The notes below the pieces were generated by a model, which was not told where the DNA came from, searched no databases, and worked only from the letters and a program-made list of their open reading frames with translations. Position numbers and translations under genes: made by a program. 32,000 nt of DNA from Acidothermus cellulolyticus 11B. GTDB taxonomy: Bacteria; Actinomycetota; Actinomycetes; Acidothermales; Acidothermaceae. Location: NCBI RefSeq assembly GCF_000015025.1, contig NC_008578.1, positions 660,001 through 692,000 of the forward strand, read 5' to 3'. This document shows positions 1 through 32,000 of this stretch, one piece after another; the stretch's first letter is position 1; each line of letters opens with the position of its first letter.

Positions 1-1088
1 TCGCCAGCGAGGCGCTCGCAATCAGTACCGGCACATCGCCTCCGCCGTCGCCGAGCTCGAGTCCATCCTCGTCGCCGTCTCCGTCGCCGTCTCCGTCGGC
101 GTCTCCGTCGGCGTCTCCGTCGGCGTCTTCGTCGCCGAGCCCGTCTCCGTCGTCGTCGCCGGTGTCGGGTGGGGTGAAGGTGCAGTACAAGAACAATGAT
201 TCGGCGCCGGGTGATAACCAGATCAAACCGGGTCTCCAGTTGGTGAATACGGGGTCGTCGTCGGTGGATTTGTCGACGGTGACGGTGCGGTACTGGTTCA
301 CCCGGGATGGTGGGTCGTCGACACTGGTGTACAACTGTGACTGGGCGGCGATGGGGTGTGGGAATATCCGCGCCTCGTTCGGCTCGGTGAACCCGGCGAC
401 GCCGACGGCGGACACCTACCTGCAGTTGTCGTTCACTGGTGGAACGTTGGCCGCTGGTGGGTCGACGGGTGAGATTCAAAACCGGGTGAATAAGAGTGAC
501 TGGTCGAACTTTGATGAGACCAATGACTACTCGTATGGGACGAACACCGCCTTCCAGGATTGGACGAAGGTGACGGTGTATGTCAATGGCCGGCTGGTGT
601 GGGGGACTGAACCGTCCGGCACCAGCCCCAGCCCCACACCCAGCCCCAGCCCAACCCCGTCCCCGAGCCCGAGCCCGACCCCAAGCCCCAGCTCCTCCCC
701 ATCCCCGTCCCCGAGCCCCAGCCCCAGCCCTACGCCGTCCCCGTCGCCGAGCCCGTCGCCGTCGCCGAGTGTGTCGTCGTCGGGTGTGGGGTGCCGGGCG
801 ACGTATGTGGTGAATAGTGATTGGGGTTCTGGGTTTACGGCGACGGTGACGGTGACGAATACCGGGAGCCGGGCGACGAGCGGGTGGACGGTGGCGTGGT
901 CGTTTGGTGGGAATCAGACGGTCACGAACTACTGGAACACTGCGTTGACCCAATCAGGTGCATCGGTGACGGCGACGAACCTGAGCTACAACAACGTGAT
1001 CCAACCGGGTCAGTCGACCACCTTCGGATTCAACGGAAGTTACTCAGGAACAAACACCGCACCTACACTCACCTGCACGGCTAGTTGA
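1..1088 (+). CDS. 3' part of a multidomain secreted glycoside hydrolase gene entering from upstream (P/S linker - CBM3 - P/S/T linker - CBM2); the catalytic domain lies outside the window
   Basis: The frame with codons starting at nt 3 is open from the window edge to TGA 1086-1088. The ORF track lists only the part after an internal GTG (162..1088). The translation is an (S/P)n linker, then [27 protein letters not shown]...[12 protein letters not shown] (family-3 CBM), a second linker, then [25 protein letters not shown]...TLTCTAS (family-2 CBM with terminal Cys pair). Confidence 0.85.
   Translation, partial: ASEALAISTGTSPPPSPSSSPSSSPSPSPSPSASPSASPSASSSPSPSPSSSPVSGGVKVQYKNNDSAPGDNQIKPGLQLVNTGSSSVDLSTVTVRYWFTRDGGSSTLVYNCDWAAMGCGNIRASFGSVNPATPTADTYLQLSFTGGTLAAGGSTGEIQNRVNKSDWSNFDETNDYSYGTNTAFQDWTKVTVYVNGRLVWGTEPSGTSPSPTPSPSPTPSPSPSPTPSPSSSPSPSPSPSPSPTPSPSPSPSPSPSVSSSGVGCRATYVVNSDWGSGFTATVTVTNTGSRATSGWTVAWSFGGNQTVTNYWNTALTQSGASVTATNLSYNNVIQPGQSTTFGFNGSYSGTNTAPTLTCTAS
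162..620 (+). repeat. CBM3 cassette, copy A (459 nt)
   Basis: Near-identical at the DNA level to 7410-7868 and, from nt 183 on, to 1289-1726. Off-frame ORF-track peptides from the different copies are almost identical. Confidence 0.9.
792..1088 (+). repeat. CBM2 cassette, copy A (297 nt including stop)
   Basis: The core is near-identical to 8406-8702 and 10032-10328. The 3' end (NGSYSGTNTAPTLTCTAS) instead matches the GH48 copy. Confidence 0.9.
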
Positions 1089-1115
1089 ACAAACAAGGAG
1101 GAGACAAAGGAATAG

Positions 1116-1166
1116 ATGACTGTGCAGTCGAACTGTCTGGTAACAACGGAAAGGATAGGTCGGTAA
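1116..1166 (+). promoter_or_regulatory. Candidate 16-codon upstream ORF in the AT-rich junction before the GH48 gene
   Basis: AAGGAGGAG (1095-1103) and AAAGGAA precede ATG 1116. The peptide is MTVQSNCLVTTERIGR, and its TAA at 1164-66 ends 2 nt before the GH48 ATG at 1169. Confidence 0.25.
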
Positions 1167-1168
1167 AT

Positions 1169-4100: not shown

Positions 4101-4534
4101 CGTCGGCGCAGAGCTCGCCGGTGACAGCGACGACGGCATCGCCGTCGCCGAGCCCGTCGCCGAGCCCGACTCCGACGTCGTCCCCGAGCCCAACGCCGTC
4201 GCCGACACCGTCACCGACGTCCACCAGCGGCGCATCGTGCACTGCTACCTACGTTGTCAATAGCGACTGGGGTAGCGGCTTCACGACAACCGTGACCGTG
4301 ACGAACACCGGCACCAGGGCCACCAGTGGCTGGACGGTCACGTGGAGCTTTGCCGGTAATCAGACGGTCACCAACTACTGGAACACCGCGCTGACGCAAT
4401 CCGGAAAGTCGGTGACCGCAAAGAACCTGAGTTACAACAACGTCATCCAACCTGGTCAGTCGACGACCTTTGGATTCAACGGAAGTTACTCAGGAACAAA
4501 CACCGCGCCGACGCTCAGCTGCACGGCAAGCTGA
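1169..4534 (+). CDS. Secreted family-48 glycoside hydrolase (cellobiohydrolase/exoglucanase), architecture CBM3-GH48-Fn3-CBM2
   Basis: ORF track 1085..4534. I place the start at ATG 1169 (MPGLRRRLRAGIVSAAALGSLVSGLVAVAPVAHA, an RR-containing signal peptide, with GGAAAGGA upstream) rather than at TTG 1085. Domains: CBM3 at about 1274-1717 and a P/S/T linker. The catalytic region at about 1860-3770 reads DPYIQRFLTMYNKIHDPANGYFSPQGIPYHSVETLIVEAPDYGHETTSEAYSFWLWLEA..., as in GH48 enzymes. Then Fn3 at 3869-4135 and CBM2 at 4238-4534. Confidence 0.9.
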   Translation: MPGLRRRLRAGIVSAAALGSLVSGLVAVAPVAHAAVTLKAQYKNNDSAPSDNQIKPGLQLVNTGSSSVDLSTVTVRYWFTRDGGSSTLVYNCDWAAMGCGNIRASFGSVNPATPTADTYLQLSFTGGTLAAGGSTGEIQNRVNKSDWSNFDETNDYSYGTNTTFQDWTKVTVYVNGVLVWGTEPSGATASPSASATPSPSSSPTTSPSSSPSPSSSPTPTPSSSSPPPSSNDPYIQRFLTMYNKIHDPANGYFSPQGIPYHSVETLIVEAPDYGHETTSEAYSFWLWLEATYGAVTGNWTPFNNAWTTMETYMIPQHADQPNNASYNPNSPASYAPEEPLPSMYPVAIDSSVPVGHDPLAAELQSTYGTPDIYGMHWLADVDNIYGYGDSPGGGCELGPSAKGVSYINTFQRGSQESVWETVTQPTCDNGKYGGAHGYVDLFIQGSTPPQWKYTDAPDADARAVQAAYWAYTWASAQGKASAIAPTIAKAAKLGDYLRYSLFDKYFKQVGNCYPASSCPGATGRQSETYLIGWYYAWGGSSQGWAWRIGDGAAHFGYQNPLAAWAMSNVTPLIPLSPTAKSDWAASLQRQLEFYQWLQSAEGAIAGGATNSWNGNYGTPPAGDSTFYGMAYDWEPVYHDPPSNNWFGFQAWSMERVAEYYYVTGDPKAKALLDKWVAWVKPNVTTGASWSIPSNLSWSGQPDTWNPSNPGTNANLHVTITSSGQDVGVAAALAKTLEYYAAKSGDTASRDLAKGLLDSIWNNDQDSLGVSTPETRTDYSRFTQVYDPTTGDGLYIPSGWTGTMPNGDQIKPGATFLSIRSWYTKDPQWSKVQAYLNGGPAPTFNYHRFWAESDFAMANADFGMLFPSGSPSPTPSPTPTSSPSPTPSSSPTPSPSPSPTGDTTPPSVPTGLQVTGTTTSSVSLSWTASTDNVGVAHYNVYRNGTLVGQPTATSFTDTGLAAGTSYTYTVAAVDAAGNTSAQSSPVTATTASPSPSPSPSPTPTSSPSPTPSPTPSPTSTSGASCTATYVVNSDWGSGFTTTVTVTNTGTRATSGWTVTWSFAGNQTVTNYWNTALTQSGKSVTAKNLSYNNVIQPGQSTTFGFNGSYSGTNTAPTLSCTAS
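1289..1726 (+). repeat. CBM3 cassette, copy B (N-terminal module of the GH48 gene)
   Basis: By eye I found a single mismatch to copy A across the roughly 340 nt between ...accagatcaaaccggg and gggacgaacacc. The flanks diverge. Confidence 0.9.
4238..4534 (+). repeat. CBM2 cassette, copy B (GH48), synonymously diverged
   Basis: Same length and a closely similar protein, but with many third-position differences (C-ending codons) from the other three copies in its 5' two-thirds. Confidence 0.85.
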
Positions 4535-4551
4535 TCTCGGCTCAACCACTA

Positions 4552-4590
4552 GGGGTAGCGGCCGTCCATCCCCTCGGCGGCCGCTACCCC
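4552..4590 (+). terminator. Stem-loop terminator candidate after the GH48 gene
   Basis: Perfect 13-bp inverted repeat GGGGTAGCGGCCG (4552-4564) / CGGCCGCTACCCC (4578-4590) with a 13-nt loop, 18 nt after the stop. There is no U-tract, which is common in high-GC actinobacteria. Confidence 0.6.
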
Positions 4591-4720
4591 AACGGGGTAC
4601 GACCCGTCCGTCGGTGCGGTCCGTCGATCGCTTCGGCCGCGCGTCGTTTGCACGCTGACGGCTGCGACGGCGGGTTCGTAGGAGCCTTGCTGAGCGACGG
4701 AGGGCCGGAATGGGTTGTAT

Positions 4721-4735
4721 TCGGTGGCGCACCGA
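4721..4735. promoter_or_regulatory. Palindrome TCGGTG-GCG-CACCGA upstream of the GH74 gene (possible operator)
   Basis: Perfect 6-bp arms about 70 nt upstream of ATG 4806. A related CGGTG-N7-CACCG lies about 30 nt upstream of the GH12 ATG (about 9083-9099). Confidence 0.25.
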
Positions 4736-4805
4736 GTGATAACCGCGGAACGCAATCGCCGTGCGCAGCGTCATCGCCGTCCACTCATACGGAGAAGTGA
4801 TCACG

Positions 4806-8702
<3,897 letters not shown>

Positions 8703-8731
8703 CCCACCAGGAGGCAGCGGAAAAATCACGG

Positions 8732-8765
8732 CCGCGCTCGGCTGTCCTGGTGGCCGAGCGTGCGG
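8732..8765 (+). terminator. Stem-loop terminator candidate after the GH74 gene
   Basis: CCGCGCTCGGC ... GCCGAGCG(T)GCGG inverted repeat, about 11 bp with one bulge and a 10-nt loop, 30 nt after the stop. Confidence 0.45.
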
Positions 8766-9116
8766 GAGTCGTCAGACCTTCGCGCATTCCGTGGCGATCG
8801 ACGGGAGACCGTGCCACGTAAGGCGGTCCTCCACTGATCGCCGGTGACCACACGGTGCTGCGGGAGCGAGAACATTGCTCTGGTCGATAGCCGGTTGTCG
8901 GTCGATTGGCGTACGGGCTTCGCCGGACGGTACGAATCGCGCGTCCGTTTGGCTACACCGGATAGGACCATCCGGCTCTTTACGCCTCGTAATGGCATTC
9001 TCACACTGAGTTAATAGGAGCAGGTAGGCCGACGCAGGCAAGCTCCTGCAGGCTCCTCGCCGTCCCCGAATGCGACCGGGGCCGGTGTCAGAGGCACCGT
9101 CCGAGAGGAGCAGATC

Positions 9117-10328
9117 ATGCTAGTGCTCAGGGCGCCGCGATGGCGAGTGGTCATCACGGCAGCCGCAGTGGGGATCGCGGCCGCCGGAATACTTGTGACA
9201 AGTCACTCCGCCTATGGTGCAACGACATCAACGTGTTCACCTACCGCCGTGGTGAGTGTGGCCGGTGACGAATACCGGGTGCAGGCCAATGAGTGGAATT
9301 CGTCGGCCCAACAATGCCTCACCATTGACACGTCAACGGGCGCCTGGTCAGTCAGCACGGCGAATTTCAATCTTGCGACCAACGGAGCGCCGGCGACGTA
9401 TCCGTCGATTTACAAGGGTTGCCACTGGGGCAACTGCACGACAGCCAATGTCGGGATGCCGATTCAGGTCAGCAAGATTGGTTCGGCTGTGACGTCGTGG
9501 AGTACGACGCAGGTGTCGTCGGGCGCGTATGACGTGGCCTACGACATTTGGACGAACAGCACCCCGACGACCTCTGGTCAGCCGAATGGCACAGAGGTGA
9601 TGATTTGGTTGAATTCGCGGGGTGGGGTGCAGCCGTTCGGGTCGCAGACGGCGACGGGTGTGACGGTCGCTGGTCACACGTGGAACGTCTGGCAGGGCCA
9701 GCAGACGTCCTGGAAGATTATTTCCTACGTCCTGACCCCTGGTGCGACGTCGATCAGCAATCTGGATTTGAAGGCGATTCTCGCGGACGCTGCTGCGCGC
9801 GGCTCGCTCAACACCTCCGATTACCTCATCGATGTTGAGGCCGGGTTTGAGATCTGGCAAGGTGGTCAGGGCCTGGGTAGTAACTCGTTCAGCGTCTCCG
9901 TGACGAGCGGCACGTCCAGCCCGACACCGACACCGTCTCCAAGCCCATCCCCGAGCCCCGCGCCCAGCCCGTCCCCGAGCCCGAGCCCAACGCCCACGTC
10001 CAGCCCGACATCGTCGTCTGGTGGTGTTGGGTGCAAGGCTGCCTATGCGGTTAGTAATGATTGGGGTTCTGGGTTTACGGCGACGGTGACGGTGACAAAT
10101 ACCGGGAGCCGGGCGACGAGCGGGTGGACGGTGGCGTGGTCGTTTGGTGGGAATCAGACGGTCACGAACTACTGGAACACTGCGTTGACCCAATCAGGTA
10201 AGTCGGTGACGGCGACGAACCTGAGCTACAACAACGTGATCCAACCGGGTCAGTCGACCACCTTCGGGTTCAACGCCAACTACACCGGCAGTAACACCCC
10301 ACCCACACTCACCTGCACCGCCAGCTGA
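9117..10328 (+). CDS. Secreted family-12 endoglucanase with C-terminal CBM2
   Basis: ATG 9117 is preceded by GAGAGGAG at a 6-nt spacing. The signal peptide is MLVLRAPRWRVVITAAAVGIAAAGILVTSHSAYG. The catalytic region has YRVQANEWNS, GTEVMIWLN (E-x-M-I-W nucleophile motif) and VEAGFEIWQGG (acid/base Glu motif), as in GH12. Then a P/S/T linker and CBM2 at 10032-10328. Confidence 0.88.
   Translation: MLVLRAPRWRVVITAAAVGIAAAGILVTSHSAYGATTSTCSPTAVVSVAGDEYRVQANEWNSSAQQCLTIDTSTGAWSVSTANFNLATNGAPATYPSIYKGCHWGNCTTANVGMPIQVSKIGSAVTSWSTTQVSSGAYDVAYDIWTNSTPTTSGQPNGTEVMIWLNSRGGVQPFGSQTATGVTVAGHTWNVWQGQQTSWKIISYVLTPGATSISNLDLKAILADAAARGSLNTSDYLIDVEAGFEIWQGGQGLGSNSFSVSVTSGTSSPTPTPSPSPSPSPAPSPSPSPSPTPTSSPTSSSGGVGCKAAYAVSNDWGSGFTATVTVTNTGSRATSGWTVAWSFGGNQTVTNYWNTALTQSGKSVTATNLSYNNVIQPGQSTTFGFNANYTGSNTPPTLTCTAS
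10032..10328 (+). repeat. CBM2 cassette, copy D (GH12)
   Basis: The core is near-identical to copies A and C. The 5' 25 nt and the 3' end differ. Confidence 0.9.
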
Positions 10329-10520: not shown

Positions 10521-12074
10521 CTATGCGGGTTGTGGGGAGCCAGGCAGGACCTGGCTCCCCACTCCCGCGAGAGTGACCCGGTTGCGGCCGGCTGATTTCG
10601 ATTGATAGAGGGCGGCGTCGGCAGCCGAAAGAATGTGATCCGGTGATCCGCCATGCAGGGGGAAGGTCGCGACCCCGAGGCTCACCGTAACGCGCGGTTC
10701 GGCGTCAAGACCGAAAATTCGGCGGCGAAGATTCTCCGCTGCGGTGGCAGCGCCGGCGAGATCGGTGTCCGGCAGCACAACGACGAATTCCTCCCCGCCG
10801 TACCGGGCGACGAGGTCAGAGCTCCGGCACCCCTGCTGGAGTGCGCGGGCAACCCGCTGGAGCGTCTGGTCGCCGACTTGATGTCCGAACGTGTCATTGA
10901 TGTGCTTGAAATGGTCGATGTCGACCATGACGACGGATATCGGTTGTGCCGCCCGACTCGCTTGAGCGAACATCCGGTCGAGATTCTCTTCGAGAGTACG
11001 CCGATTCGCTACTCCGGTGAGCATGTCAGTCGCGGCAAGCAATGTGATCTGCTCGAGCAGCCAGCTGTTGGCCAGCGCGAGCGCTGTTTGCGACGCGTAA
11101 CGTTCCAGCATTGCGACGACGCGCCGGTCAACCCGCGAACCGAAACGGGCATTGTGCTCGGCCACCAGTACGCCGTCCACGTTGTTGCCGGCTGACATGG
11201 GGACGAGGAGGAGGCGCTGGGCCCCGGGAAAGCTGGCCGCAAGCCATCGATCCCGGTGTCGGTCGATATGCCCCAGCCGCCACGTCCGCCGTTCGCGGCG
11301 AACCGATTGAATAGAGCGGTCTTCCGCGGGTGACAGTCGGTTCGGTGTCGTCTTGACCGAGGCCAGGATGACGTCGCCCGGGCCGCTCTTGACGACGATT
11401 GCCGCTCGAGGTGCGAGAAAGTCGTCGTGCACCGCTTCGACAAGCACGCGACCGACGTCGGCGGGATGGAGAGCTTCCTCCAAGCGCTGAGAAAGTCGAG
11501 CCAGCCCAAGAAGATCGTAGTTGCGGCGGCGCAACTCGCGTTCGTTCACGGAGGCGAACGCGGCGGTCGCCAGCGTGACCAGCCATACCGCGGCGACGAA
11601 AGCGCCCACCTCCGCCCCGGTCGAGTGGTGCGGAGAATGGAGCACCCCCGCCCTCAGGTATTGATAGACGACGAAGGCAAGCAGGGAATGCCAGACCGCG
11701 ATTTTCAAGCCGGTGCGAAAGGATGCCAGCAGCGTAACCGTTACGGCGTGCACCAGAACGAGGGTGACCTGGGGAGACACGTATCCGGTTGTGGCATAGC
11801 TGGTGATCGCCAGATATATCCCGTCGATGACGAGCGACGCGCTGAAGACCGTGAGTATCGTTCGCCGTGACAGTCGTGCGGCGTACGCGGTCGGCGCTGT
11901 CACCGCGAGATATCCGGCCGTGAATCCCGCGAGCGAGACAAGCGGCAGGCCTCGATATTGCGGGACGGCGTACCACAGCAGCACCATCACCACACCGAGG
12001 CCATACCGACACAGCTGGGTAGTCCGGAGCCGTTCGCTGAGCGGCACCAAGTCGATGTCCTGTGTTCGTGCCAT
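10521..12074 (-). CDS. Membrane diguanylate cyclase: about 6 TM helices, a GAF-like domain and a GGDEF domain (GGEEF active site, RxxD I-site)
   Basis: 517-aa ORF with an ATG start. The N-terminal half is hydrophobic helices (VVMVLLWYAV..., LAGFTAGYLAV..., VFSASLVIDGIYLAI..., and others). The centre is GAF-like (LLLVPMSAGNNVDGVLVAEHN...). The C-terminus reads DMLTGVANRR...VVMVDIDHFKHINDTFGHQVGD...RSSDLVARYGGEEFVVVLP, with RSSD at the canonical I-site spacing before GGEEF. Confidence 0.9.
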   Translation of the reverse strand: MARTQDIDLVPLSERLRTTQLCRYGLGVVMVLLWYAVPQYRGLPLVSLAGFTAGYLAVTAPTAYAARLSRRTILTVFSASLVIDGIYLAITSYATTGYVSPQVTLVLVHAVTVTLLASFRTGLKIAVWHSLLAFVVYQYLRAGVLHSPHHSTGAEVGAFVAAVWLVTLATAAFASVNERELRRRNYDLLGLARLSQRLEEALHPADVGRVLVEAVHDDFLAPRAAIVVKSGPGDVILASVKTTPNRLSPAEDRSIQSVRRERRTWRLGHIDRHRDRWLAASFPGAQRLLLVPMSAGNNVDGVLVAEHNARFGSRVDRRVVAMLERYASQTALALANSWLLEQITLLAATDMLTGVANRRTLEENLDRMFAQASRAAQPISVVMVDIDHFKHINDTFGHQVGDQTLQRVARALQQGCRSSDLVARYGGEEFVVVLPDTDLAGAATAAENLRRRIFGLDAEPRVTVSLGVATFPLHGGSPDHILSAADAALYQSKSAGRNRVTLAGVGSQVLPGSPQPA

Positions 12075-12075
12075 G

Positions 12076-13179
12076 TCAGTGTTCCTCTCCCGGAGCGCCG
12101 TGTTCCTCTCCCGGAGCGCAGTCGTCGAACGGCAGTGTTTCGTCCCGGTAGACCGGCGCTAAGGCAAGCTTCGGATCACGCCTATCAATGCGGTGTTGGA
12201 GAAGGAGGAAGAGCAGCGGAATGGGCGTGACAAAAAGGGTCCACGATATTCCTTTTGCGGTCGGCAACGCGGTGGGTGCGAGCGCGTGAAACACCGTCCG
12301 GGCGAGGTTTCCCAGCCGGTTTGCAAAGCTCGGCGGCCCGGACGGCGGCGGATTTGTCAGCGGAACGTGTAACACCTGCCGGGGTTTCCGGTGCGGTGAC
12401 GGCGTGGGGGCGGCCGATGGTGCGGGGCTCGCCGGTGGGGTGCTCGATGCGGAGCTCCTCGGCGGAGCGGAGACGTCGTTGAAGGCCGGACCGCCCGGCG
12501 ATGTCGTCGTGGGAGAACCGCCCGGCGTTCTCATCGTCGGGGGTTGGGTGGCGGACGGCGTTTGCGCTGGTGTGGGGCTGGGGGACGGCGATGCGGTCAC
12601 GGTGGGGGACGGGCTTGGAGATGGGCTCGGGCTCGGCGGCAGCTGATCGGCGGTCGTGAGCGCAAACGTGAGGCTTGCCGTGGCGGTAAGCCCTTGCGCG
12701 CGGTTGTCATCGACGAGGGTGACCTGGATTTCGACGCTTGCGGAACCGCTCGGCGGCGGCATCGAGCCAAGGCTGAGCTGAGTCGACAGATCGCCATGCT
12801 GAGCGGCGAGGTCGGCGAGAGTACCGGCGTAGCGCACCGTACCGGAAAATCCCGTGCACGATCCGAAACCGCCTCCAGAGCCGACGGCTATCGTCACATT
12901 CAGGAATGACGCGAGATTTCCGCTCGCCGCTGCGGTCATGCCGAGATCTGCCGGCGTGGTGAGGTTGGCGTAATCGAGGCGGAGGCAGTTCGTTTGAGTC
13001 GCGCCCGGTGCGAGGTTCGTGAGGGCCGGAAAGAGCGGGCCGGACGCATCGCTGGTCAGGGTCGGATCGGCGGCGCTCGCCGGGTATGCGGAGCCGATCC
13101 CCACTGCCGCGCAGCAAAGGACGGCGGCCACCGTCTGGACGGTCGCCGCCACGCCGCGTCGTACGGTTAGCGGCACCAT
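12076..13179 (-). CDS. Type-I membrane protein: signal peptide, TasA/camelysin-like beta-sandwich ectodomain, long P/S/T-rich stalk, single TM helix and an approximately 40-aa cytoplasmic tail
   Basis: ORF track 12076..13515. I start at ATG 13179 (residue 113 of the track ORF), which has GGGAGG just upstream, followed by MVPLTVRRGVAATVQTVAAVLCCAAVGIGSAYPASA. The ectodomain pattern is LFPALTNLAPGATQTNCLRLDY...FLNVTIAVG...VRYAGTLADLA...VTLVDDNRAQGLTATASLTFALTTADQ. It resembles the TasA/CalY (peptidase M73-like) family; I recognised this from memory and did not search. The TM helix is ISWTLFVTPIPLLFLLL. The family call is moderate and the coding call is high. Confidence 0.6.
   Translation of the reverse strand: MVPLTVRRGVAATVQTVAAVLCCAAVGIGSAYPASAADPTLTSDASGPLFPALTNLAPGATQTNCLRLDYANLTTPADLGMTAAASGNLASFLNVTIAVGSGGGFGSCTGFSGTVRYAGTLADLAAQHGDLSTQLSLGSMPPPSGSASVEIQVTLVDDNRAQGLTATASLTFALTTADQLPPSPSPSPSPSPTVTASPSPSPTPAQTPSATQPPTMRTPGGSPTTTSPGGPAFNDVSAPPRSSASSTPPASPAPSAAPTPSPHRKPRQVLHVPLTNPPPSGPPSFANRLGNLARTVFHALAPTALPTAKGISWTLFVTPIPLLFLLLQHRIDRRDPKLALAPVYRDETLPFDDCAPGEEHGAPGEEH
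12079..12120 (-). repeat. Perfect-but-one 21-bp tandem duplication at the 3' end of the TasA-like gene
   Basis: The plus strand reads gtgttcctctcccggagcgcc then gtgttcctctcccggagcgca. This encodes ...CAPGEEH GAPGEEH*. Each unit contains GGGAGAGGAA, which is the Shine-Dalgarno sequence for the downstream cyclase ATG at 12074. Confidence 0.9.
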
Positions 13180-16804: not shown

Positions 16805-17123
16805 CGTGCGCTCAACTCATTGTGCCCTTGTGTAATTGGACGTCCTCTGTACGGTGGTGGTTGTTTCTCAACCGCAATCGTGTGGGGACTCGCATGGGCG
16901 GGTACGGCGGCGATTAGCGCTGTGGCTGTTCCGCCAGACGAGGCCGGCTCGGCGTAGGGGTTGGGGTAGAAGCCGTATTCCCTGGAAACGTTTCGATTGT
17001 GTACGCCGGCGGGACCAGGTCGGCGACTACGGCGGTGTCGTCGCAATGCGGCCAAGACCTGCACCAAGCCGGTATCCGGCGGCCGCGTATGTCTTGTGAG
17101 CTCTGGACGCGGCTCCTGGACCG

Positions 17124-17195
17124 TGCCCCCGGCAGGATTCGAACCTGCGCCCCTGCCTCCGGAGGGCAGTGCTCTCTCCCCTGAGCTACGGGGGC
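17124..17195 (-). tRNA. tRNA-Arg (anticodon CCG), CCA not encoded
   Basis: The minus strand reads GCCCCCG TA GCTC AGGGGAGA GAGC A CTGCC CTCCGGA GGCAG GGGC GCAGG TTCGAAT CCTGC CGGGGGC A. This is a complete cloverleaf with a 7-bp acceptor stem, a TTCGAAT T-loop, U33 and anticodon CCG. Confidence 0.93.
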
Positions 17196-26215: not shown

Positions 26216-28246
26216 GTGACCGACATCAGCACCGCAATGCCCACCGTTTCCGGCGAGAATTCCTCTCCTTCCGGCACCAGCGACGAGAGCCGTGGTGGTG
26301 CGCGCCGCCGCAAGGCTGCCGAGAGCGGCACATCGTCGCTGTCCGCCATGGTGCTTTCGGAATTGCAGGCGCTGGCCGCCAGTCTGGGAATTACCGGGAT
26401 TGCGCGGATGCGTAAGGGCGAATTGATCGAAGCAATTCGCCAGCGGCAGGGTGGTTCGGGCGCCGCCGCTGGAGGCTCCCCGGCCGGGAGTGATGCCGGC
26501 GGCGAAAGCCCCGGCGAGACGCCCGCGGCGCGGACGACGGTAAGCCGCTCACGCGGGCGGCGGGCGGTGGTTCCCGCCCTGCAGACGACACCCACGCTCG
26601 ACGTCGAGGTTCCCGTGCAGTCGACGGCTGCAGCTCCGGCTGGTTCGCCGCTCGAAATCTCTCCGGGTACGGCGGAGACCGCTCAGCCACCGGCCGCCCG
26701 CGCCGGCGACGGTCAGATGCAGCGTCGCGCCGGCCGGTTCGGCGGCCGCAACGCCACGGGTGCAGCGGGCGGAGGAGCCGGCGCGAGCCCGAGTCAGCCG
26801 GCTGGTTTCGGGCCGGCGAACGGGGCCGCGGCGGTCTCAGCCCCGACGGCAGGGCCGGGCCTGGGTCGGGAGGCAGCGCAGCGCGGCGCTCCGGCGGGCA
26901 ACGGGAGCCGCGTGGCCGGCGGTCAGGCGGGCAGCCCGGCGGAAACCGGCGGCAACGGCAATGGAACCGTGAGCAACGGTGCGGAACGTCGCCGGGAGGA
27001 CGAGGAATTCGCCGACATGGGCGGCCGTCGCCGGCGCGGCCGCTTCCGCGAACGCGGCGGACGGCTGCGGGTGCGGGAACGGTCGGATTACGAGCCGGCT
27101 GTTTCCGAGGACGACGTCCTGGTGCCGATCGCCGGAATTCTTGACGTGCTGGACAATTACGCATTCGTGCGTACGTCCGGATACCTGCCCGGGCCGAATG
27201 ATGTGTACGTCTCGTTGGCCCAGGTGCGCCGGTATGGCTTGCGCAAGGGCGATGCGATCACCGGAATGGTTCGCCAGCCGCGCGAAGGGGAACGGCGGGA
27301 GAAATTCAACCCGCTGGTGCGGCTGGACACCGTGAACGGCATGGATCCGGAGAGCGCCCGAAACCGAGTGGAATTCAGCAAGCTCACTCCGCTGTATCCG
27401 CAAGAGCGGTTGCGGTTGGAGACGGAGCCTCAGCAGATCACCACGCGCATCATCGACCTCATCGCACCGATCGGCAAAGGCCAGCGCGGTCTCATCGTCT
27501 CGCCGCCCAAGGCGGGCAAGACGATGGTGCTCCAAGCAATCGCGAACGCCATTACGCGGAACAATCCGGAGTGCCACCTCATCGTCGTGCTCGTCGACGA
27601 GCGGCCGGAGGAAGTCACCGACATGCAACGCTCGGTGAAGGGCGAGGTTATTTCGTCGACGTTCGACCGTCCGGCGGAAGACCACACGATGGTCGCGGAG
27701 CTGTCCATTGAGCGGGCGAAGCGACTTGTCGAGCTCGGTCACGACGTCGTCATCCTGCTCGACTCCATCACCCGCTTGGGCCGCGCGTACAACACCGCGG
27801 CGCCGGCGTCCGGGCGTATTCTCTCCGGTGGGGTCGACTCCGCTGCGCTGTATCCGCCGAAGAAATTCTTCGGCGCGGCCCGCAACATTGAGAACGGCGG
27901 TTCGCTCACTATCATTGCCACGGCGTTGGTCGAAACCGGTTCCCGCGGCGACGAGGTCATCTTCGAAGAATTCAAGGGAACCGGCAACATGGAGCTCAAG
28001 CTCGACCGGAAATTCGCTGACAAGCGCATTTTCCCGGCGGTCGACATCAACGCGTCCGGCACCCGGAAAGAAGAAATCCTGCTCTCCCCGGAGGAACTCC
28101 AGATCGTCTGGCGGTTGCGGCGGGTGCTTCATGCCCTCGACCCCCAGCAAGCCCTTGAGGTGCTCATCGAGAAAATGCGGCAGACCCGCAGCAACGCGGA
28201 GTTCCTCGTCCAGGTGCAGAAGACGATGCCGATGCCCTCGGAGTGA
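26216..28246 (+). CDS. rho: Transcription termination factor Rho with a long actinobacterial Arg/Gly/Ala-rich N-terminal insertion
   Basis: GTG 26216 immediately follows an in-frame TGA, giving (M)TDISTAM... It has the N-terminal helix bundle [28 protein letters not shown], an approximately 200-aa low-complexity insert and an OB/CSD-like segment [27 protein letters not shown]. The Walker A motif is SPPKAGKT, followed by [14 protein letters not shown] and [15 protein letters not shown]. Confidence 0.95.
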
Positions 28247-28428
28247 TGCCGGCCTGGTGTGCGCGGGCTTGGCCGACGCCGTCTCGGCCGGGCGTACGAG
28301 GAGGCGGCTAGTCCGTTCGACACACCGGATTGGGTCGCTCAGGCGCTCGAGTCGCGGCGCGATCCGCCGAGTATGTTCTCGTACCGTCCAGCGTTTCGAG
28401 GCCCGCGTGGGGGCTACGGGAGCACCGC

Positions 28429-29202
28429 ATGAACGTCCTCGCCATTGGGGCGCACCCCGATGACATCGAACTGGGCTGCGCCGGCGCCCTCCTTCGACAT
28501 GTCGCGGTCGGTGACAAGGTCACCCTGCTCGTGATGACCACCGGCGAGCGGGGGCCGCAGGACTCCGTCTCGCGTGTCCTCGAACAGGAGAATGCCGCGG
28601 CGCGCCTCGGGGCCGAGCTGATTTGGGGCGGTTTCCCGGACGGCGCGATCCCGCACAGCCGAGAGACGGTGACCTTCATCGACTCCGTCATTGCCGCCGT
28701 CGGCGCGGAGGTGCTCTACACGCACGGTCAGCACGACACCCATCAAGACCACGTGGCGACCGCCCTCTGTTCGCTCTCCGCCGCGCGGCGCCTCAACCGG
28801 GTGCTCTGCTACCAATCGCCGTCCGCCACCGCGTTCAACCCGGTCGTCTACGTCGACATCGAAGACACCTTGCGGGGCAAGCTCGAGGCGCTCGCTTGTC
28901 ACCGCTCGCAGGTCGAGCGGTGCGAGCTCGTTGATCTAGAAGCGGTCGAGGCCGGCGCCCGGTTCTGGGGTCATCAAGCCCGGATGCGGTACGCCGAGGC
29001 GTTCGAGGTGCCCCGGTTCGTCTGGGACATCACCGGTGGCGCGTCGGCGGTACGCCGGCTCGAGAGCGCAGCGGCGGCCGGTGAGGCGGCCGCTGATCGG
29101 GTCGGCGTCCGGGACTTCGAGCTTGTCGACGGCGGCGGTGCGGGCGAGCCTGTCCGGCGTACCGGGACATCGGTGTACCTGGTGGGTGGCCGCCGTCCGT
29201 GA
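28429..29202 (+). CDS. PIG-L/LmbE-family zinc-dependent N-acetylglucosaminyl deacetylase
   Basis: ORF track 28330..29202. ATG 28429 is preceded by GGGAG and gives MNVLAIGAHPDDIELGCAG (AHPDDxE motif). It also has THGQHDTHQDH (HxDH motif) and ...ACHRSQ. Confidence 0.85.
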   Translation: MNVLAIGAHPDDIELGCAGALLRHVAVGDKVTLLVMTTGERGPQDSVSRVLEQENAAARLGAELIWGGFPDGAIPHSRETVTFIDSVIAAVGAEVLYTHGQHDTHQDHVATALCSLSAARRLNRVLCYQSPSATAFNPVVYVDIEDTLRGKLEALACHRSQVERCELVDLEAVEAGARFWGHQARMRYAEAFEVPRFVWDITGGASAVRRLESAAAAGEAAADRVGVRDFELVDGGGAGEPVRRTGTSVYLVGGRRP

Positions 29203-30614
29203 CCGCCCCGCCACTCGCCGGCTCGTTCCGGGGACTCGCGGCGTCCGATTCCTCGGTCAGCGGCGTGCCGTGGACGTTCATCGTGCTGGCCGGGCTGATC
29301 AGCGCGGCCGTCGGCATTCTCGGCCCTGATCGGGCGATCTTTCTCGGCGTCCTCGTCATCAACCTCGTCTTCCTCGTCTTCTTCCTCCGCCATGTCGCCT
29401 TCGCGGCTGCGGCGGCCCGATGGGCGCCGACGGATCTGTACGAGAGCCCGGAGGTGCCCAGCGAAGACCTTCCGACGGTGAGCGTGCTCGTCGCGTGCCA
29501 CAACGAGGAGAGCGTCGTACCCGGGCTGATCCGCGGCCTGGTCGCCCTGCACTACCCGAGATCCCGCCTCGAAATTCTGATCGTCAACGACGGGTCCAGT
29601 GATCGCACGGGTGAATTGCTTGATCAGCTGACCGCCGGCATCCGGCACATGCGGGTGATTCATCGACCGGCCGGCGCCGGCGGCGGCAAATCCGGTGCGC
29701 TCAACGCCGCGCTGGCGGAAGCGAACGGGGAAATCGTCGTCGTCTTCGACGCCGACCACATCCCGCGCCGCAACGTCATCCACCGGCTGGTCCGTCACTT
29801 TCGCGACCCCACCGTGGCCGCCGTCCAAGGCCGGTGCATCGTGCGGAATTCCGTGCAATCCACCCTCGCCCGCTCGATTGCCATCGACTATTTCTCCGGC
29901 TACCTCGTGAACGAATACGGTCGGCAGGCGCTTTTCGGGCTACCGGCGTACGGCGGAGCCAATTGTGCGGTCCGGACCGCTCTGCTGCGGCAATTCGGCG
30001 GCTGGAATGTCAACAGCGTGACCGAAGACACCGATATCACGTTGCGGCTGGTCTTGGCCGGTTATCGCGTGCGGTACGACATCACCGCGGTGGACACCGA
30101 GGAAGGAGCGACCACGTTGGCGCGGTTCGTCCGGCAGCGATACCGCTGGGCCCGCGGCCACCAGCAGGTATGGCGGGACTATCGCCGCGGCGTGTGGCGG
30201 TGCCCGCACCTCACCCTCGGGCAGAAGATCGAGACGACCCTGTTTCTCCTCGTCTACCACGTGCCTGTCTTCTGCACCCTGACGCTCGTCCTCACCCTGC
30301 TGCGCCTTGCCGGCATCGGGCCGCACGTGAGTGTGGTCGAACTGCTGCCCCTCGCCGCCCTGCTCTTCGCCGGCCCGTTCTGCGAACTCGCGGTCGGCCT
30401 GCTGGTCGGCCGGGCTCCGCGCCGGGCCGCCTGGTCGGTGGCCTGGATGACCCCCCTGTTCGTCGTTTTCATGCTCGTCTGCACCCGGGCGTGGATCGAC
30501 GGGCTCCTTGGCCGGCCCTACACCTGGGTGAAGACGAAGCGGTCCCAGTGGAGCGCGCTCGCCGGCCGCGAGGAGATCGCGGACCGCGGACCGCTCGCCG
30601 AGGAGCGGCTGTGA
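29199..30614 (+). CDS. Integral-membrane family-2 glycosyltransferase of the processive synthase type (D, DxD, TED, QxxRW)
   Basis: GTG 29199 overlaps the PIG-L stop (GTGA); GTG 29265 is an alternative start. It has two N-terminal TM helices. The motifs are VSVLVACHNEE, ILIVNDGSSD, VVVFDADH, SVTEDTDITLRL and RQRYRWARGH. At least 3 C-terminal TM helices follow. Confidence 0.88.
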   Translation: MTAPPLAGSFRGLAASDSSVSGVPWTFIVLAGLISAAVGILGPDRAIFLGVLVINLVFLVFFLRHVAFAAAAARWAPTDLYESPEVPSEDLPTVSVLVACHNEESVVPGLIRGLVALHYPRSRLEILIVNDGSSDRTGELLDQLTAGIRHMRVIHRPAGAGGGKSGALNAALAEANGEIVVVFDADHIPRRNVIHRLVRHFRDPTVAAVQGRCIVRNSVQSTLARSIAIDYFSGYLVNEYGRQALFGLPAYGGANCAVRTALLRQFGGWNVNSVTEDTDITLRLVLAGYRVRYDITAVDTEEGATTLARFVRQRYRWARGHQQVWRDYRRGVWRCPHLTLGQKIETTLFLLVYHVPVFCTLTLVLTLLRLAGIGPHVSVVELLPLAALLFAGPFCELAVGLLVGRAPRRAAWSVAWMTPLFVVFMLVCTRAWIDGLLGRPYTWVKTKRSQWSALAGREEIADRGPLAEERL

Positions 30615-31144
30615 TCCGCCGCCGCGCCGTCATCGCCGGGCTGCTGGCGGCCGCCTTGGTGGTGGCTTTCGGCGGTTTTCTCCTGCTCTCCGACCCGCTC
30701 CGGGCGCTCGAGAGCCGGCTGGTGCTCGACGTCCTCCGGCCCGGGCAGCGGGTGACCCTCGTTGGTGACCACTATTTCCAGGTCCTGCCCGCCCACCACA
30801 CCCCGTTCCGGGCGCAGCTGACGCCGTTCTGCTCCTCGCTCGTACCGGTGCTCGCCCTCGCGGCGATCGCGGCGTTCGTCGTCCACGGGCACTGGGTGCG
30901 GCGCAGCGCCGCGCTGCTCACGGCGGCAACCCTCGTCGTGATCTGCAATGTGCTCCGGATCGCCGCATCGCTCTGGGTCGGCCTGCAGGTCGGTGCACGG
31001 GGATTGGTGTTGTTCCACGACTGGGTGGGCACGCTCTTCGGCCTCGGTTACACGATGATCGGGTTTTTCCTCATGCTCTACCTGCTGCTGCCGAGGGCGA
31101 CGACACGGATTCCACGAGCGGCCCGGGTCAGCGATGTCCTCTGA
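30611..31144 (+). CDS. Small (177 aa) polytopic membrane protein of the exosortase/archaeosortase family (minimal core)
   Basis: GTG 30611 overlaps the GT2 stop (GTGA); this is the terminal part of track ORF 29834..31144. Hydrophobic helices carry TPFCSSL (Cys74), ICNVLRIAAS (N-x-x-R) and LFHDWVGTLFG (His136) in the order typical of exosortase catalytic motifs. The family assignment is from memory, not from a search. Confidence 0.65.
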   Translation: MIRRRAVIAGLLAAALVVAFGGFLLLSDPLRALESRLVLDVLRPGQRVTLVGDHYFQVLPAHHTPFRAQLTPFCSSLVPVLALAAIAAFVVHGHWVRRSAALLTAATLVVICNVLRIAASLWVGLQVGARGLVLFHDWVGTLFGLGYTMIGFFLMLYLLLPRATTRIPRAARVSDVL

Positions 31145-31203: not shown

Positions 31204-32000
31204 ATGGTGGATAACCTGCGGCTGCTTGCCATCCTGCTCGGCGTCGTCCTCATCGCGGCCGGCATCGGCTGGCGGACCGTCCGGTTCGCGCGGATTCGGC
31301 AGGGCATCCGCAGCGGCCTTGCGGACCCCGACCCTGCAGTGCGCATCGCCGCGGTGCGGCAGGCGGCCGAGCTCGGCTTGGCCAGCACGGCTCCGGCGCT
31401 GCTCCGCGCCGTCCGCGTCGAGACCGACCCGGCGGTCCGGGCGGCGGTCGTCGAGTGTGTCGCTGCTCATCAATGGGAACCGGCGTCCACTGCGGCGATC
31501 GTCGAGTTGCGGTTGTGGGCGAAGGCGTACGTCGGCGCACGCCCGGATCTCGCGCGATCACCGGTCCGGTCGGCTCCGCTGCTCGCCGGGGTGGCGGGGA
31601 CCGTGCCGGCGCCGTCCCTGCATCCTGTCCGCGAACACGAATTCCGGCGCCGGACCGCGACCGACCTGCACGTCGACGACGCCGCCGCGCTGGGGCCGCC
31701 GCCGGACGACGATCCGCTGGCCCGACTGCGGATTCTGGTCACCGGTGTCGGCGGTGCAGCCGGCGTCGCCGTCGTCCGGGCATTGCGGGCCGCCGGGCAC
31801 ACGGTGATTGGCGTGGACGCCGATCCGGACGCTGTGGGGATCCGGCTTGCCGATCACGGCCAAGCCGTGCCGCGAGCCGACGATCCGACGTACCTGACCG
31901 CGCTGATCCACGCTGCGACGCTGTTCGACGCCGAGCTGCTCGTGCCGACCGTCACCGAAGAATTGCCCGTTCTCATTGCCGGTGCAGGGTATTTGCGTGA
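31204..32000 (+). CDS. 5' part of a gene for a membrane-anchored HEAT-repeat protein fused to an ATP-grasp-type (pre-ATP-grasp Rossmann-like) domain; 3' end outside the window
   Basis: This third + frame is not in the ORF track because it has no stop before the window end. AGGAGAG lies 7 nt before ATG 31204. The protein has MVDNLRLLAILLGVVLIAAGIGW (TM helix) and DPDPAVRIAAVRQAAELG...ETDPAVRAAVVECV (HEAT/PBS-lyase-like repeats). RILVTGVGGAAGVAVVRALRAAGHTVIGVDADPDAVGIRLADHGQAVPRADDPTYLTALIHAATLFDAELLVPTVTEELPVL resembles the N-terminal module of ATP-grasp ligases found in polysaccharide loci. Confidence 0.55.
   Translation, partial: MVDNLRLLAILLGVVLIAAGIGWRTVRFARIRQGIRSGLADPDPAVRIAAVRQAAELGLASTAPALLRAVRVETDPAVRAAVVECVAAHQWEPASTAAIVELRLWAKAYVGARPDLARSPVRSAPLLAGVAGTVPAPSLHPVREHEFRRRTATDLHVDDAAALGPPPDDDPLARLRILVTGVGGAAGVAVVRALRAAGHTVIGVDADPDAVGIRLADHGQAVPRADDPTYLTALIHAATLFDAELLVPTVTEELPVLIAGAGYLR

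Follow-up and report, generated by a model that had tools for sequence, protein, structure and literature searches.

A small exosortase-family protein encoded in a conserved glycosyltransferase cassette of Actinomycetota

Introduction

Exosortases are widespread, but we know of no bacterial member whose acceptor is defined or whose reaction has been reconstituted, and an explanation for their linkage to exopolysaccharide genes has been outstanding since 2006. The gene considered here belongs to Acidothermus cellulolyticus 11B and lies close to the end of a 32,000-nucleotide stretch of DNA (the window). A first-pass annotation had proposed that this gene encodes a minimal enzyme of the exosortase/archaeosortase type. 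Does the protein belong to this superfamily? And if it does, which proteins could it process, and what could it attach them to?

Family assignment and size

The open reading frame is present as annotated (30611–31144, forward strand, 177 aa). Its product scores 30.7 bits against the family model TIGR04178 (exo_archaeo), for which the curated cut-off is 23. The alignment joins residues 76–158 of the protein to positions 12–94 of the 97 in the model, and 107 of 108 relatives match the same model. Judged by these models, the window protein is a genuine, unusually small member of the exosortase/archaeosortase superfamily, and the original identification is supported. In NCBI, close homologues already go by the name 'exosortase/archaeosortase family protein'. 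The similarity exceeds chance: database searches found 190 homologues and 215 clusters at 50% identity.

The best named subfamily is XrtS (NF033767). Its model aligns end to end (residues 11–156 against positions 3–152 of 155; 49.5 bits, E = 4e-13) without reaching the cut-off of 145, and the XrtR score is 11.7 bits against a cut-off of 150. The relatives behave similarly: below the curated thresholds, XrtS is matched by 100 and XrtR by 56 of the 108, with a best XrtS E-value of 9.5e-15. Since the scores fall far under both cut-offs, the protein belongs to a separate subfamily. For Pfam PF09721 (Exosortase_EpsH) the window protein reaches 18.9 bits, under the gathering score of 25.7; a precomputed match to this family is carried by many close homologues, and fused relatives score 25.6–27.9 bits. 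XrtG is not matched by the window protein at E up to 1. A literature search on XrtS, XrtG, XrtK and XrtR returned nothing relevant.

Canonical members are indeed larger, as had been pointed out: PF09721 has 254 positions, XrtA 261 and XrtD 486. The 8TM_EpsH architecture (TIGR02602) does not apply to a protein with four transmembrane (TM) helices, and just 12 of 108 relatives match that model, weakly. To call the protein a bare catalytic core is therefore fair as far as helices are counted (four instead of eight), but small size in itself is not new, as curated short exosortase families already exist (model lengths: XrtS 155, XrtR 160, XrtK 163).

Conserved residues and membrane topology

The three motifs on which the identification was based are in place. 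TPFCSSL contains Cys74 (TGC, 30830–30832), ICNVLRIAAS contains Asn113 (AAT, 30947–30949) and Arg116 (CGG, 30956–30958), and LFHDWVGTLFG contains His136 (CAC, 31016–31018), all on the forward strand. We counted conservation over 108 sequences, which reach down to 28% identity. Arg116 and His136 are invariant (108/108 each), Asn113 is kept in 107, and Cys74, the presumed acyl-enzyme nucleophile in a TP[FSY]CSS motif, in 105, with Ser in two others. Orthologues and distant relatives alike thus retain the set that was predicted to be conserved. The order Cys, Arg, His within TM segments is retained as well, as in the superfamily at large. A fourth residue, Glu34 (30710–30712, forward strand), is also found in 108 of 108 relatives; it sits in the part of helix 1 that projects past the membrane on the outer side.

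The polytopic character of the protein is borne out by a hydropathy scan (four TM segments) and by the AlphaFold2 model (four long helices; pLDDT 93.9, pTM 0.86). In the model the helices span residues 2–45, 77–89, 95–127 and 129–159, and the first outer loop is predicted to form a small three-stranded sheet. By helix limits and topology, the three residues all fall within the outer-leaflet part of the predicted membrane segments: Cys74 at the outer start of TM2, the Asn113-x-x-Arg116 motif (30947–30958, forward strand) in the outer half of TM3, and His136, in the motif LVLFHDW, about seven residues below the outer end of TM4. A search of PDB sequences with the family profile gave no match, and Foldseek with the window-protein model found nothing in the PDB below E = 1.

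The orientation can be read from relatives in which the protein is extended. In the fused and HEAT-extended forms described below, no TM helix is added between TM4 and the ATP-dependent domain. Therefore the C terminus of the exosortase should be cytoplasmic, and Cys74, Arg116 and His136 should point toward the outer face. The resulting picture is a protein of four TM helices with both termini in the cytoplasm.

In the unfused clade the cytoplasmic C-terminal tail (IPRAARVSDVL, 31112–31141, forward strand) hardly varies, and it is predicted to be disordered, with pLDDT 61–73 at this end of the AlphaFold2 model. Positions R169, A170, A171, R172, S174, D175 and L177 are invariant in the set A1. 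In other lineages a HEAT segment is covalently joined here. We propose that the HEAT domain of the neighbouring ATP-grasp protein docks onto this tail.

A conserved cassette

The mini-exosortase gene does not stand alone. Its GTG start overlaps the TGA stop of a family-2 glycosyltransferase (GT2) gene by 4 nt (GTGA, 30611–30614), and the start residue is identical in all 20 aligned homologues. The exosortase gene is translationally coupled to the gene of a processive GT2 synthase.

A profile scan of a genome collection with the 20-sequence alignment yielded 79 related loci in Actinomycetota, from Acidothermaceae, Frankiales, Geodermatophilaceae, Pseudonocardia, Catenulispora, Nanopelagicales, Acidimicrobiia and Solirubrobacteraceae. 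Essentially all of them keep the GT2, exosortase, ATP-grasp, WecB and HAD genes in colinear order. The full order is PIG-L deacetylase, processive GT2 synthase, mini-exosortase, membrane-anchored HEAT/ATP-grasp ligase, WecB epimerase and HAD hydrolase. A literature search for exosortases together with ATP-grasp proteins, or for exosortases in these actinobacterial genera, returned nothing relevant. The cassette is conserved and so far undescribed, and its exosortase system was previously uncurated. PIG-L, WecB and HAD proteins belong to generic families.

The first cassette gene in the window (28429–29202, forward strand) encodes a PIG-L/LmbE-type N-acetylglucosaminyl deacetylase, which is cytoplasmic and has no signal peptide. 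Its likely start is the ATG at 28429; the listed reading frame begins farther upstream, at 28330. The protein matches Pfam PF02585 (E = 3e-21), its best NCBIfam model is BshB1 (86 bits, under the cut-off), and the gene holds the same position in the cassettes of relatives. The GT2 gene follows at 29199–30614 on the same strand. It encodes a PgaC/BcsA/NodC-like enzyme with DxD, TED and Q-R-Y-R-W motifs and, according to a TM scan, two N-terminal and about four C-terminal TM segments. The enzyme scores 109 bits against Pfam Glyco_tranf_2_3 and matches BcsA among PDB sequences. Three more specific models fall short of their cut-offs: NCBIfam PgaC_IcaA (152 bits, cut-off 422.3), the XrtP-associated glycosyltransferase (81.7 bits) and TIGR03111, the XrtG-associated glycosyltransferase (61.9 bits, cut-off 363.95).

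Downstream of the exosortase, the 5' part of the ligase gene (31204–32000, forward strand) runs past the end of the window. It encodes an N-terminal TM helix, HEAT repeats and an ATP-grasp domain of the PRK12767 type ('carbamoyl-phosphate-synthase-like'). The protein matches Pfam HEAT_2 and PylC-like_N, and the full-length orthologue in locus L001 has ATP-grasp_3/ATPgrasp_Ter. The best PDB match of the ATP-grasp part is 2pn1, an entry with a generic depositor name only; there is no characterised close relative.

Exosortase and ligase come in three architectures. They can be separate, with HEAT repeats on the ligase (Xrt and TM-HEAT-ATPgrasp), separate with HEAT repeats on the exosortase (Xrt-HEAT and ATPgrasp; HEAT homology at E = 1e-11), or a single protein (Xrt-HEAT-ATPgrasp). 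Fusions of exosortase and ATP-grasp occur in P0173, P0178, P0182, P0218, P0225, P0232 and L085. The fusion to a cytoplasmic ligase settles how the exosortase lies in the membrane, and it leads us to expect a physical complex. This exosortase-ATP-grasp system also explains why 177-aa proteins in JGI data carry the mislabel 'carbamoyl-phosphate synthase large subunit'.

Where are the substrates?

Substrates of exosortases would be recognised by a C-terminal signal of three parts: a short motif, a TM helix and a basic tail. The first-pass annotation had seen no such signal in the window, and three approaches agree with it: a scan for hydropathy and basic tails, a motif scan and a signal HMM. The HMM covers 44 residues and was built from 60 candidate signals of relatives, with the consensus LGSTTACATTPVPADGNVGGVLLALALLGVAGALLLAARRRRRR; its best match in the window has E = 0.15 and falls on a spurious antisense reading frame. 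In one protein of the window (12076–13179, reverse strand) about 40 residues follow a C-terminal TM helix, just as had been described. We considered this protein as a substrate ('LPTAKG', TM helix, 40-aa tail) and rejected it as evidence: it matches neither the signal HMM nor any family.

In relatives the situation is different. Signal-bearing reading frames lie within 10 kb of the cassette in 62 of the 79 loci, counted by homology. A strict regular expression (P..G, TM, three basic residues) recovers 31 loci only. Because it misses many true cases, we prefer the homology-based count. The candidate substrates are small Sec-secreted proteins that end in a motif with an invariant Gly, a TM helix and an Arg cluster. 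Many of their genes are directly upstream of the cassette and linked by 4-nt overlaps (in L009: 6819–7358, 7355–7894 and 7891 onwards). The motif lies immediately before the helix and the Arg cluster after it, a geometry that fits an outward-facing Cys74, Arg116 and His136. Co-location of the signal-bearing proteins with the cassette could also be structural and need not reflect an enzyme-substrate relationship.

The motif comes in the variants KPVPxxG[NS], LPA[DE]GNG and [VM]PxGA[VI]GG. Some of these look superficially like sortase signals, for example LPADGNG and LPEEGNG in Geodermatophilaceae, and Actinobacteria have several sortase classes. The neighbours might then be conventional sortase substrates (LPXTG-like, class E/F), close to the mini-exosortase by coincidence. 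We regard this as very improbable. Thr is absent at motif position 4, most variants read KPVPxxG or VPxGAxGG, and the NCBIfam LPXTG-anchor model gives no match even at E up to 10. Moreover, the conserved neighbours include no sortase gene, and the association of substrates with the cassette is kept across three classes of Actinomycetota.

In the remaining 17 of the 79 loci, most Acidimicrobiia among them, no signal-bearing reading frame was found nearby. Two seemingly conserved clusters of reading frames in Acidimicrobiia loci proved to be antisense shadows typical of high-GC DNA; the all-against-all clustering of reading frames from the loci is contaminated by such shadows. Neither a substrate nor a substrate homologue was found in the closest relative, an Acidothermus sp. 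metagenome-assembled genome (MAG) that may be incomplete (L005).

These gaps, together with the gene order, could be taken to mean that no protein is sorted at all. The 177-aa protein would then serve the GT2 synthase as an accessory or modifying subunit, with a role like that of PgaD/IcaD, or it would be an enzyme that acts on glycan only and, for example, transfers or trims an aminoacyl or peptide group that the ATP-grasp ligase has added. The signal-bearing neighbours would be ordinary membrane-anchored partners. Translational coupling to GT2 speaks for this explanation, GT2 and ATP-grasp are always linked to the gene while signal-bearing frames are missing from 17 loci and from the window, and NCBIfam pairs some curated exosortases with GT2 enzymes (the XrtG- and XrtP-associated glycosyltransferases). 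For XrtG we know of no identified target protein. Yet the Cys/Arg/His set of sorting enzymes is conserved, and proteins with a classic tripartite signal and Sec export stand in operon with the cassette in 62 of the 79 loci. One such family, the type found in Pseudonocardia and Catenulispora, matches the NCBIfam model 'choice-of-anchor P' at 119 bits (cut-off 27), and 'choice-of-anchor' domains are named for carrying differing C-terminal anchors by lineage. Pfam and NCBIfam scans of the window protein reveal no sequence similarity to PgaD/IcaD. An explanation without protein sorting is thus unlikely in our view.

The preferred reading remains that the protein sorts substrates, and a protein from the window's own clade suggests where to look for them. 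P0292 ends in QCATKPVPITGG, a TM helix and then SRRR; it is predicted to fold as a beta-sandwich, with no significant match in the PDB. It is encoded on contig JBOGEK010000170, and the cassette of the same MAG (L019) lies on contig JBOGEK010000016. As gene and cassette are on separate contigs, a substrate encoded elsewhere is the better reading. Hence the substrates in the A. cellulolyticus 11B genome are probably encoded outside the cassette. The first-pass annotation had offered a choice: either the substrate lies elsewhere or the enzyme acts on a non-protein acceptor such as the GT2 product. Its first half gains from P0292 and from the dedicated substrates beside the cassettes of relatives. 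The second half is better put otherwise: given the obligatory linkage to GT2, PIG-L, ATP-grasp, WecB and HAD, the GT2 product is a plausible acceptor rather than a stand-in for a protein substrate.

A possible mechanism

We propose that the 177-aa protein is the catalytic subunit of an actinobacterial exosortase system, in which Cys74 would carry out transpeptidation onto an acceptor and the substrates are encoded elsewhere in the genome. We assign this reading, which is drawn from sequence comparison, a probability of about 0.6.

The reaction may proceed in three steps. A substrate would be exported by Sec and retained in the membrane by its C-terminal helix. Cys74, at the outer membrane boundary and helped by His136 and Arg116, would attack the peptide bond at or near the conserved Gly to form a thioester, as proposed for ArtA. 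Such an intermediate has been shown for sortase A. Finally, an amine would resolve the thioester and leave the protein covalently joined to the acceptor.

With less certainty, we suggest the product of the cassette itself as this acceptor. GT2 together with WecB may produce a HexNAc (GlcNAc/ManNAc) oligo- or polysaccharide or a glycolipid, which PIG-L would N-deacetylate in the cytoplasm. N-aminoacylation of the deacetylated product by the ATP-grasp ligase may follow, so that a free amine would be displayed on the outer face after export.

The same substrate evidence would also fit an enzyme that cuts and does not transfer. Such an endopeptidase would cut off the C-terminal anchor, and the small beta-sandwich proteins would be set free into the wall or into the glycan matrix that the cassette produces. 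Sortases are known to hydrolyse as a side reaction, and we know of no bacterial exosortase for which an acceptor has been demonstrated. However, release leaves unexplained the obligatory linkage and fusion to a cytoplasmic ATP-grasp ligase, as well as the linkage to a cytoplasmic deacetylase that creates free amines. The ArtA precedent, too, favours transfer onto an amine (PMC7157517). Cleavage alone is therefore quite an improbable account.

The system is unusually compact. It has six or seven genes, which in many cases form a single translationally coupled operon and which appear to hold the enzyme, its candidate substrates and a plausible module for building the acceptor. Carriers such as Geodermatophilus obscurus, Pseudonocardia and Catenulispora can be cultivated, and the thermophile A. 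cellulolyticus, with its cellulase cluster, is a carrier too. The acceptor question can thus be tested directly. To the biology of the actinobacterial cell envelope, the system would contribute a new C-terminal sorting signal together with a family of surface proteins of about 130 residues.

Comparison with known systems

Like EpsH/XrtA and ArtA, the mini-exosortase is polytopic, carries conserved Cys, N-x-x-R and His motifs and passes TIGR04178. Its relatives are likewise paired with proteins that combine a motif, a TM helix and a basic cluster, and the linkage to polysaccharide genes recalls the founding EpsH systems. In contrast to those enzymes, with about 8 TM helices and 260–500 aa, it has four helices and 177 aa. 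The known systems use a PEP or PGF motif, whereas the motifs here (KPVPxxG[NS], LPA[DE]GNG, VPxGAxGG) share an invariant Gly. The hosts also differ, as Actinomycetota are mostly single-membrane (monoderm) bacteria. We know of no XrtA or ArtA system with the PIG-L, HEAT/ATP-grasp, WecB and HAD partner set, or with a fusion to ATP-grasp.

Among sorting enzymes, ArtA offers a parallel for the proposed chemistry. In Methanosarcina, artA is syntenic with pssA and pssD, and in the published model the thioester is resolved by the amine of archaetidylethanolamine (PMC7157517). In both cases a sorting enzyme is linked to genes for an amine-bearing acceptor, putative in the present case, and a Cys thioester resolved by an amine is proposed (PMC7157517). 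The acceptor route of ArtA is phospholipid-based, whereas here it would be sugar-based (GT2, deacetylase, ligase).

XrtS, XrtR and XrtK are similar in length to the mini-exosortase, which scores well below the cut-offs of XrtS and XrtR. The XrtG and XrtP systems (TIGR03110/TIGR03111 and NF012139/NF053846) resemble the cassette in that an exosortase homologue stands beside a membrane GT2 synthase, and within the exosortase family XrtG is the Gram-positive representative. The window GT2 matches both associated glycosyltransferase models below threshold only, and the cassette differs by its ATP-grasp, PIG-L, WecB and HAD genes and by identifiable candidate targets in relatives. Poly-N-acetylglucosamine (PNAG) synthases (PgaC/IcaA with PgaD/IcaD) also pair a GT2 with a small partner, but the small partner here matches exosortase models instead, and the deacetylase is of the cytoplasmic PIG-L type, not the extracellular CE4 type.

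The most far-reaching analogy is with GPI anchoring. In GPI, Nod-factor, mycothiol and bacillithiol synthesis, GlcNAc is transferred, de-N-acetylation by PIG-L-family or NodB-type enzymes exposes an amine, and acylation follows. By analogy, the cassette may give bacteria a self-contained equivalent of GPI-type anchoring, a tentative idea that is more doubtful than not. On the cytoplasmic face, GT2, WecB, PIG-L, ATP-grasp and HAD would assemble a hexosamine glycolipid or glycan that bears an amine, and the exosortase would be coupled physically to these enzymes by way of its cytoplasmic tail and the HEAT domain. After export of the glycan, small secreted beta-sandwich proteins would be transferred onto it at the conserved Gly. 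If true, a new sorting signal would be defined, and for the first time a bacterial exosortase would have a chemically defined acceptor. The GPI transamidase is not homologous to exosortases, the glycosyltransferase here is a processive GT2, and the signal here has an Arg cluster. As far as the analogy goes, GPI signals too have a cleavage site at small residues, followed by a hydrophobic tail.

A reduced exosortase with a conserved catalytic set

The ORF at 30611-31144 (+) encodes a 177-residue membrane protein that is a reduced form of exosortase. Its start codon, GTG, overlaps the stop of the preceding GT2 gene (GTGA, 30611-30614). The start call is sound, since 20 homologues share the same first residue.

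The first-pass annotation had called the protein exosortase/archaeosortase-like, and database models support this identity. The protein scores 30.7 bits against the signature model TIGR04178 of NCBIfam (curated cut-off 23) and gives a full-length alignment to the model of XrtS, a short curated exosortase family with 155 positions (E = 4e-13). NCBI names close homologues, for example in an Acidothermus sp. MAG (84% identity), 'exosortase/archaeosortase family protein'; the family identity is already in public annotation. The XrtS score of 49.5 bits lies far under that model's cut-off of 145 bits, and the Pfam PF09721 score of 18.9 is below the gathering score of 25.7. TIGR04178 matches 107 of 108 relatives. 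XrtS matches 100 of them and XrtR 56, all weakly.

Canonical exosortases have eight TM helices, whereas this protein has four. In this sense the earlier description as minimal holds. Its size is not unprecedented, however, because the short curated families XrtS, XrtR and XrtK have models of 155, 160 and 163 positions.

The codons named in the first-pass annotation are at the stated places: Cys74 at 30830-30832, Asn113 at 30947-30949, Arg116 at 30956-30958 and His136 at 31016-31018. Across the 108 sequences, with identities down to 28%, conservation is strong: Arg116 and His136 are invariant, as is Glu34, Asn113 is kept in 107 and Cys74 in 105 (the exceptions are two Ser and one misaligned sequence). 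The two homologues with Ser at the presumed nucleophile position, P0186 and P0219, may use this Ser as the nucleophile or may be paralogues that lost activity; P0219 additionally carries His at Asn113. Glu34 (30710-30712, +) and the near-invariant Arg31 lie in the extended first helix, beyond the classic Cys/Arg/His set, and may have a role in catalysis or substrate recognition.

With the 108 relatives as alignment input, AlphaFold2 gives a confident model (pLDDT 93.9, pTM 0.86). It consists of four long helices (residues 2-45, 77-89, 95-127 and 129-159), and a small three-stranded sheet lies in the loop between the first two. No similar solved structure was found, by sequence or by fold.

A conserved cassette

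In the window, the exosortase gene follows rho (26216-28246, +, 676 aa), a cytoplasmic PIG-L/LmbE deacetylase gene (28429-29202, +) and a processive GT2 synthase gene (29199-30614, +). Rho has a long N-terminal extension rich in Arg, Gly and Ala. The GT2 protein resembles PgaC, BcsA and NodC, with DxD, TED and QRYRW motifs and TM segments at both ends. The reading frame from 31204 to the window end (+) encodes a single N-terminal TM helix, HEAT repeats and the first part of an ATP-grasp domain. In a relative with 84% identity the next genes are those for a WecB UDP-GlcNAc 2-epimerase, which exceeds its NCBIfam cut-off, and a HAD hydrolase, followed by rpmE and prfA.

With each GTDB species represented by one genome, a scan found 79 distinct loci. 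They occur in Acidothermaceae, Frankiales, Sporichthyaceae, Nanopelagicales, Geodermatophilaceae, Pseudonocardia, Catenulispora, Streptosporangiaceae, Acidimicrobiia and Solirubrobacteraceae. In tblastn, GT2, exosortase, ATP-grasp, WecB and HAD are colinear at essentially all of them, and PIG-L lies upstream or about 4.8 kb downstream. The site between rho and rpmE/prfA is confined to the window's wider clade. The conserved unit is the cassette itself.

Fusions constrain the topology

An exhaustive search of 1.84 billion representatives returned several matches of 696-1118 residues with an N-terminal exosortase domain and a C-terminal ATP-grasp domain. Three architectures exist. The window has an exosortase and a separate TM-HEAT-ATP-grasp protein. 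Geodermatophilus obscurus has an exosortase-HEAT protein, whose HEAT segment is homologous (E = 1e-11), and a short ATP-grasp protein. Complete exosortase-HEAT-ATP-grasp fusions occur, for example, in loci L085, L043, L058, L078 and L080.

The only TM helices in the fused and extended forms are the four of the exosortase. Since the ATP-dependent domain is necessarily cytoplasmic and the fusions add no TM helix, TM4 must run from outside to inside. Hence we infer that Cys74 at the start of TM2, Arg116 in the outer half of TM3 and His136, some seven residues into TM4, are all oriented outwards.

The cytoplasmic tail IPRAARVSDVL (31112-31141, +, about the ten last residues) is near-invariant in the unfused clade and predicted to be disordered. 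Distant relatives have a different tail or carry the HEAT/ATP-grasp part at that point. The tail may be a dock for the HEAT repeats.

JGI labels six exosortase homologues of 177-194 aa 'carbamoyl-phosphate synthase large subunit' (P0007, P0027, P0034, P0036, P0095 and P0102). The label was probably carried over from the exosortase/ATP-grasp fusions.

Candidate substrates

In 62 of the 79 loci, one to three proteins with a tripartite C-terminal signal are encoded directly beside the cassette. Each begins with a Sec signal peptide, continues with a short mature domain and ends with the signal, in which a motif containing an invariant Gly precedes a hydrophobic helix of 17-20 residues and an Arg cluster. 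Overlaps of 4 nt tie their genes to the cassette (locus L009: 6819-7358, 7355-7894, 7891 onwards; L085: 443-970, 967 onwards).

Two main families exist. Proteins of family one (about 175-190 aa; Frankiales-like, Acidothermaceae and Geodermatophilaceae genomes) have two invariant Cys and end in C-[AS]-T-K-P-V-[PS]-x-x-G-[NSD] or C-P-[PS]-S-T-x-L-P-[AE]-[DE]-G-N-G. They are always annotated 'hypothetical protein' and match nothing in Pfam or NCBIfam. Their predicted fold is a beta-sandwich, for which the PDB gave no match. In family two, which occurs among others in Pseudonocardia, Catenulispora and Solirubrobacteraceae, the terminal motif is [VM]-P-x-G-A-[VI]-G-G, followed by a TM helix and then Q-[LF]-R-R-R-R. 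This family matches NCBIfam 'choice-of-anchor P' with 119 bits; we take 'choice-of-anchor' to denote domains whose C-terminal anchors differ between lineages.

Two or three tandem paralogues of the small signal-bearing protein, all upstream of PIG-L, occur in several loci: L009 (6819-7894), L017 (6058-7819) and L030 (6006-7822); their motifs differ (KPVPQVGS, KPVPAEGN and TTVTAEGN types).

The signal-bearing neighbours are unlikely to be conventional sortase substrates: their motifs lack the Thr of LPXTG, no LPXTG-anchor model matches them and the conserved neighbourhood contains no sortase gene. An exosortase that acts on the glycan alone, or as an accessory protein, would agree with the universal GT2 linkage and with the 17 loci without neighbouring candidates. 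Such a role leaves unexplained both the conserved catalytic set and the 62 loci with tripartite-signal proteins.

No ORF in the 32-kb window ends in a tripartite signal, as the first-pass annotation had stated. It had left the choice between a substrate encoded elsewhere and a non-protein acceptor. The best reading is that the genome probably encodes the window enzyme's substrates at other sites. A neighbouring signal-bearing copy is also absent from the loci most similar to the window, the four loci L005, L007, L011 and L019. In the MAG with L019, the cassette lies on contig JBOGEK010000016, and the signal-bearing protein P0292, whose C terminus consists of QCATKPVPITGG, a TM helix and SRRR, lies apart on JBOGEK010000170. 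Two further homologues, P0282 and P0293, are likewise in unrelated neighbourhoods. No signal-bearing homologue surfaced in the Acidothermus sp. MAG.

Other features of the window

A secreted cellulase cluster (162-10328, +) encodes a CBM3/CBM2 protein, a GH48 and a BNR/Sortilin-type (GH74-like) protein, each with CBM3, fn3 and CBM2, and a GH12 with CBM2. Its GC content (0.59-0.65) is under that of the rest of the window. Taken with the 84% identity of the exosortase to its counterpart in the Acidothermus sp. MAG, the cluster indicates a genome like that of Acidothermus cellulolyticus. The protein at 12076-13179 (-) is secreted: it has a signal peptide and a linker rich in Pro, Ser and Thr, and its C terminus consists of 'LPTAKG', a TM helix and an acidic tail of 40 residues. 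It matches no Pfam, NCBIfam or sorting-signal HMM. A GAF-GGDEF diguanylate cyclase gene (10524-12074, -) follows directly downstream on the same strand, about one base away. A tRNA-Arg (CCG; 17123-17195, -) is the sole Rfam or ARAGORN match.

Proposed mechanism and acceptor

In the published model of ArtA, the active-site Cys forms a thioester that is resolved by the amine of archaetidylethanolamine, and in Methanosarcina artA is syntenic with pssA/pssD (PMC7157517). Family membership, conserved residues, topology constraints, cassette, fusions and signal-bearing neighbours are shown for the system studied here; the reaction itself can be proposed by analogy with sortase A and ArtA. At the outer boundary of the membrane, Cys74 would attack the substrate's invariant Gly or a position close to it. 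This would free the TM helix together with the Arg tail, and the protein would be passed to an amine acceptor. A protease that only cleaves would agree with the candidate substrates as well, but not with the ligase fusion.

The subfamily, the six-gene cassette, the ATP-grasp fusion, the two cargo families and the Gly-centred signal appear to be uncurated and unpublished, as far as NCBIfam 20.0, Pfam and the literature that could be searched show. Because the system is compact, it could allow a long-standing question, that of the acceptor of exosortases, to be tested in actinobacteria that can be cultivated.

With lower confidence, we propose that transfer to an amine would use the cassette's own product. 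WecB would supply UDP-ManNAc, GT2 would make and export a HexNAc chain, and the cytoplasmic PIG-L enzyme would expose an amine, to which an amino acid may be joined by the ATP-grasp ligase. In the PDB, the sequence that matches the ATP-grasp protein best, 2pn1, has a generic depositor name that gives no substrate clue. By analogy, a similar logic operates in Nod-factor, mycothiol/bacillithiol and GPI biosynthesis.
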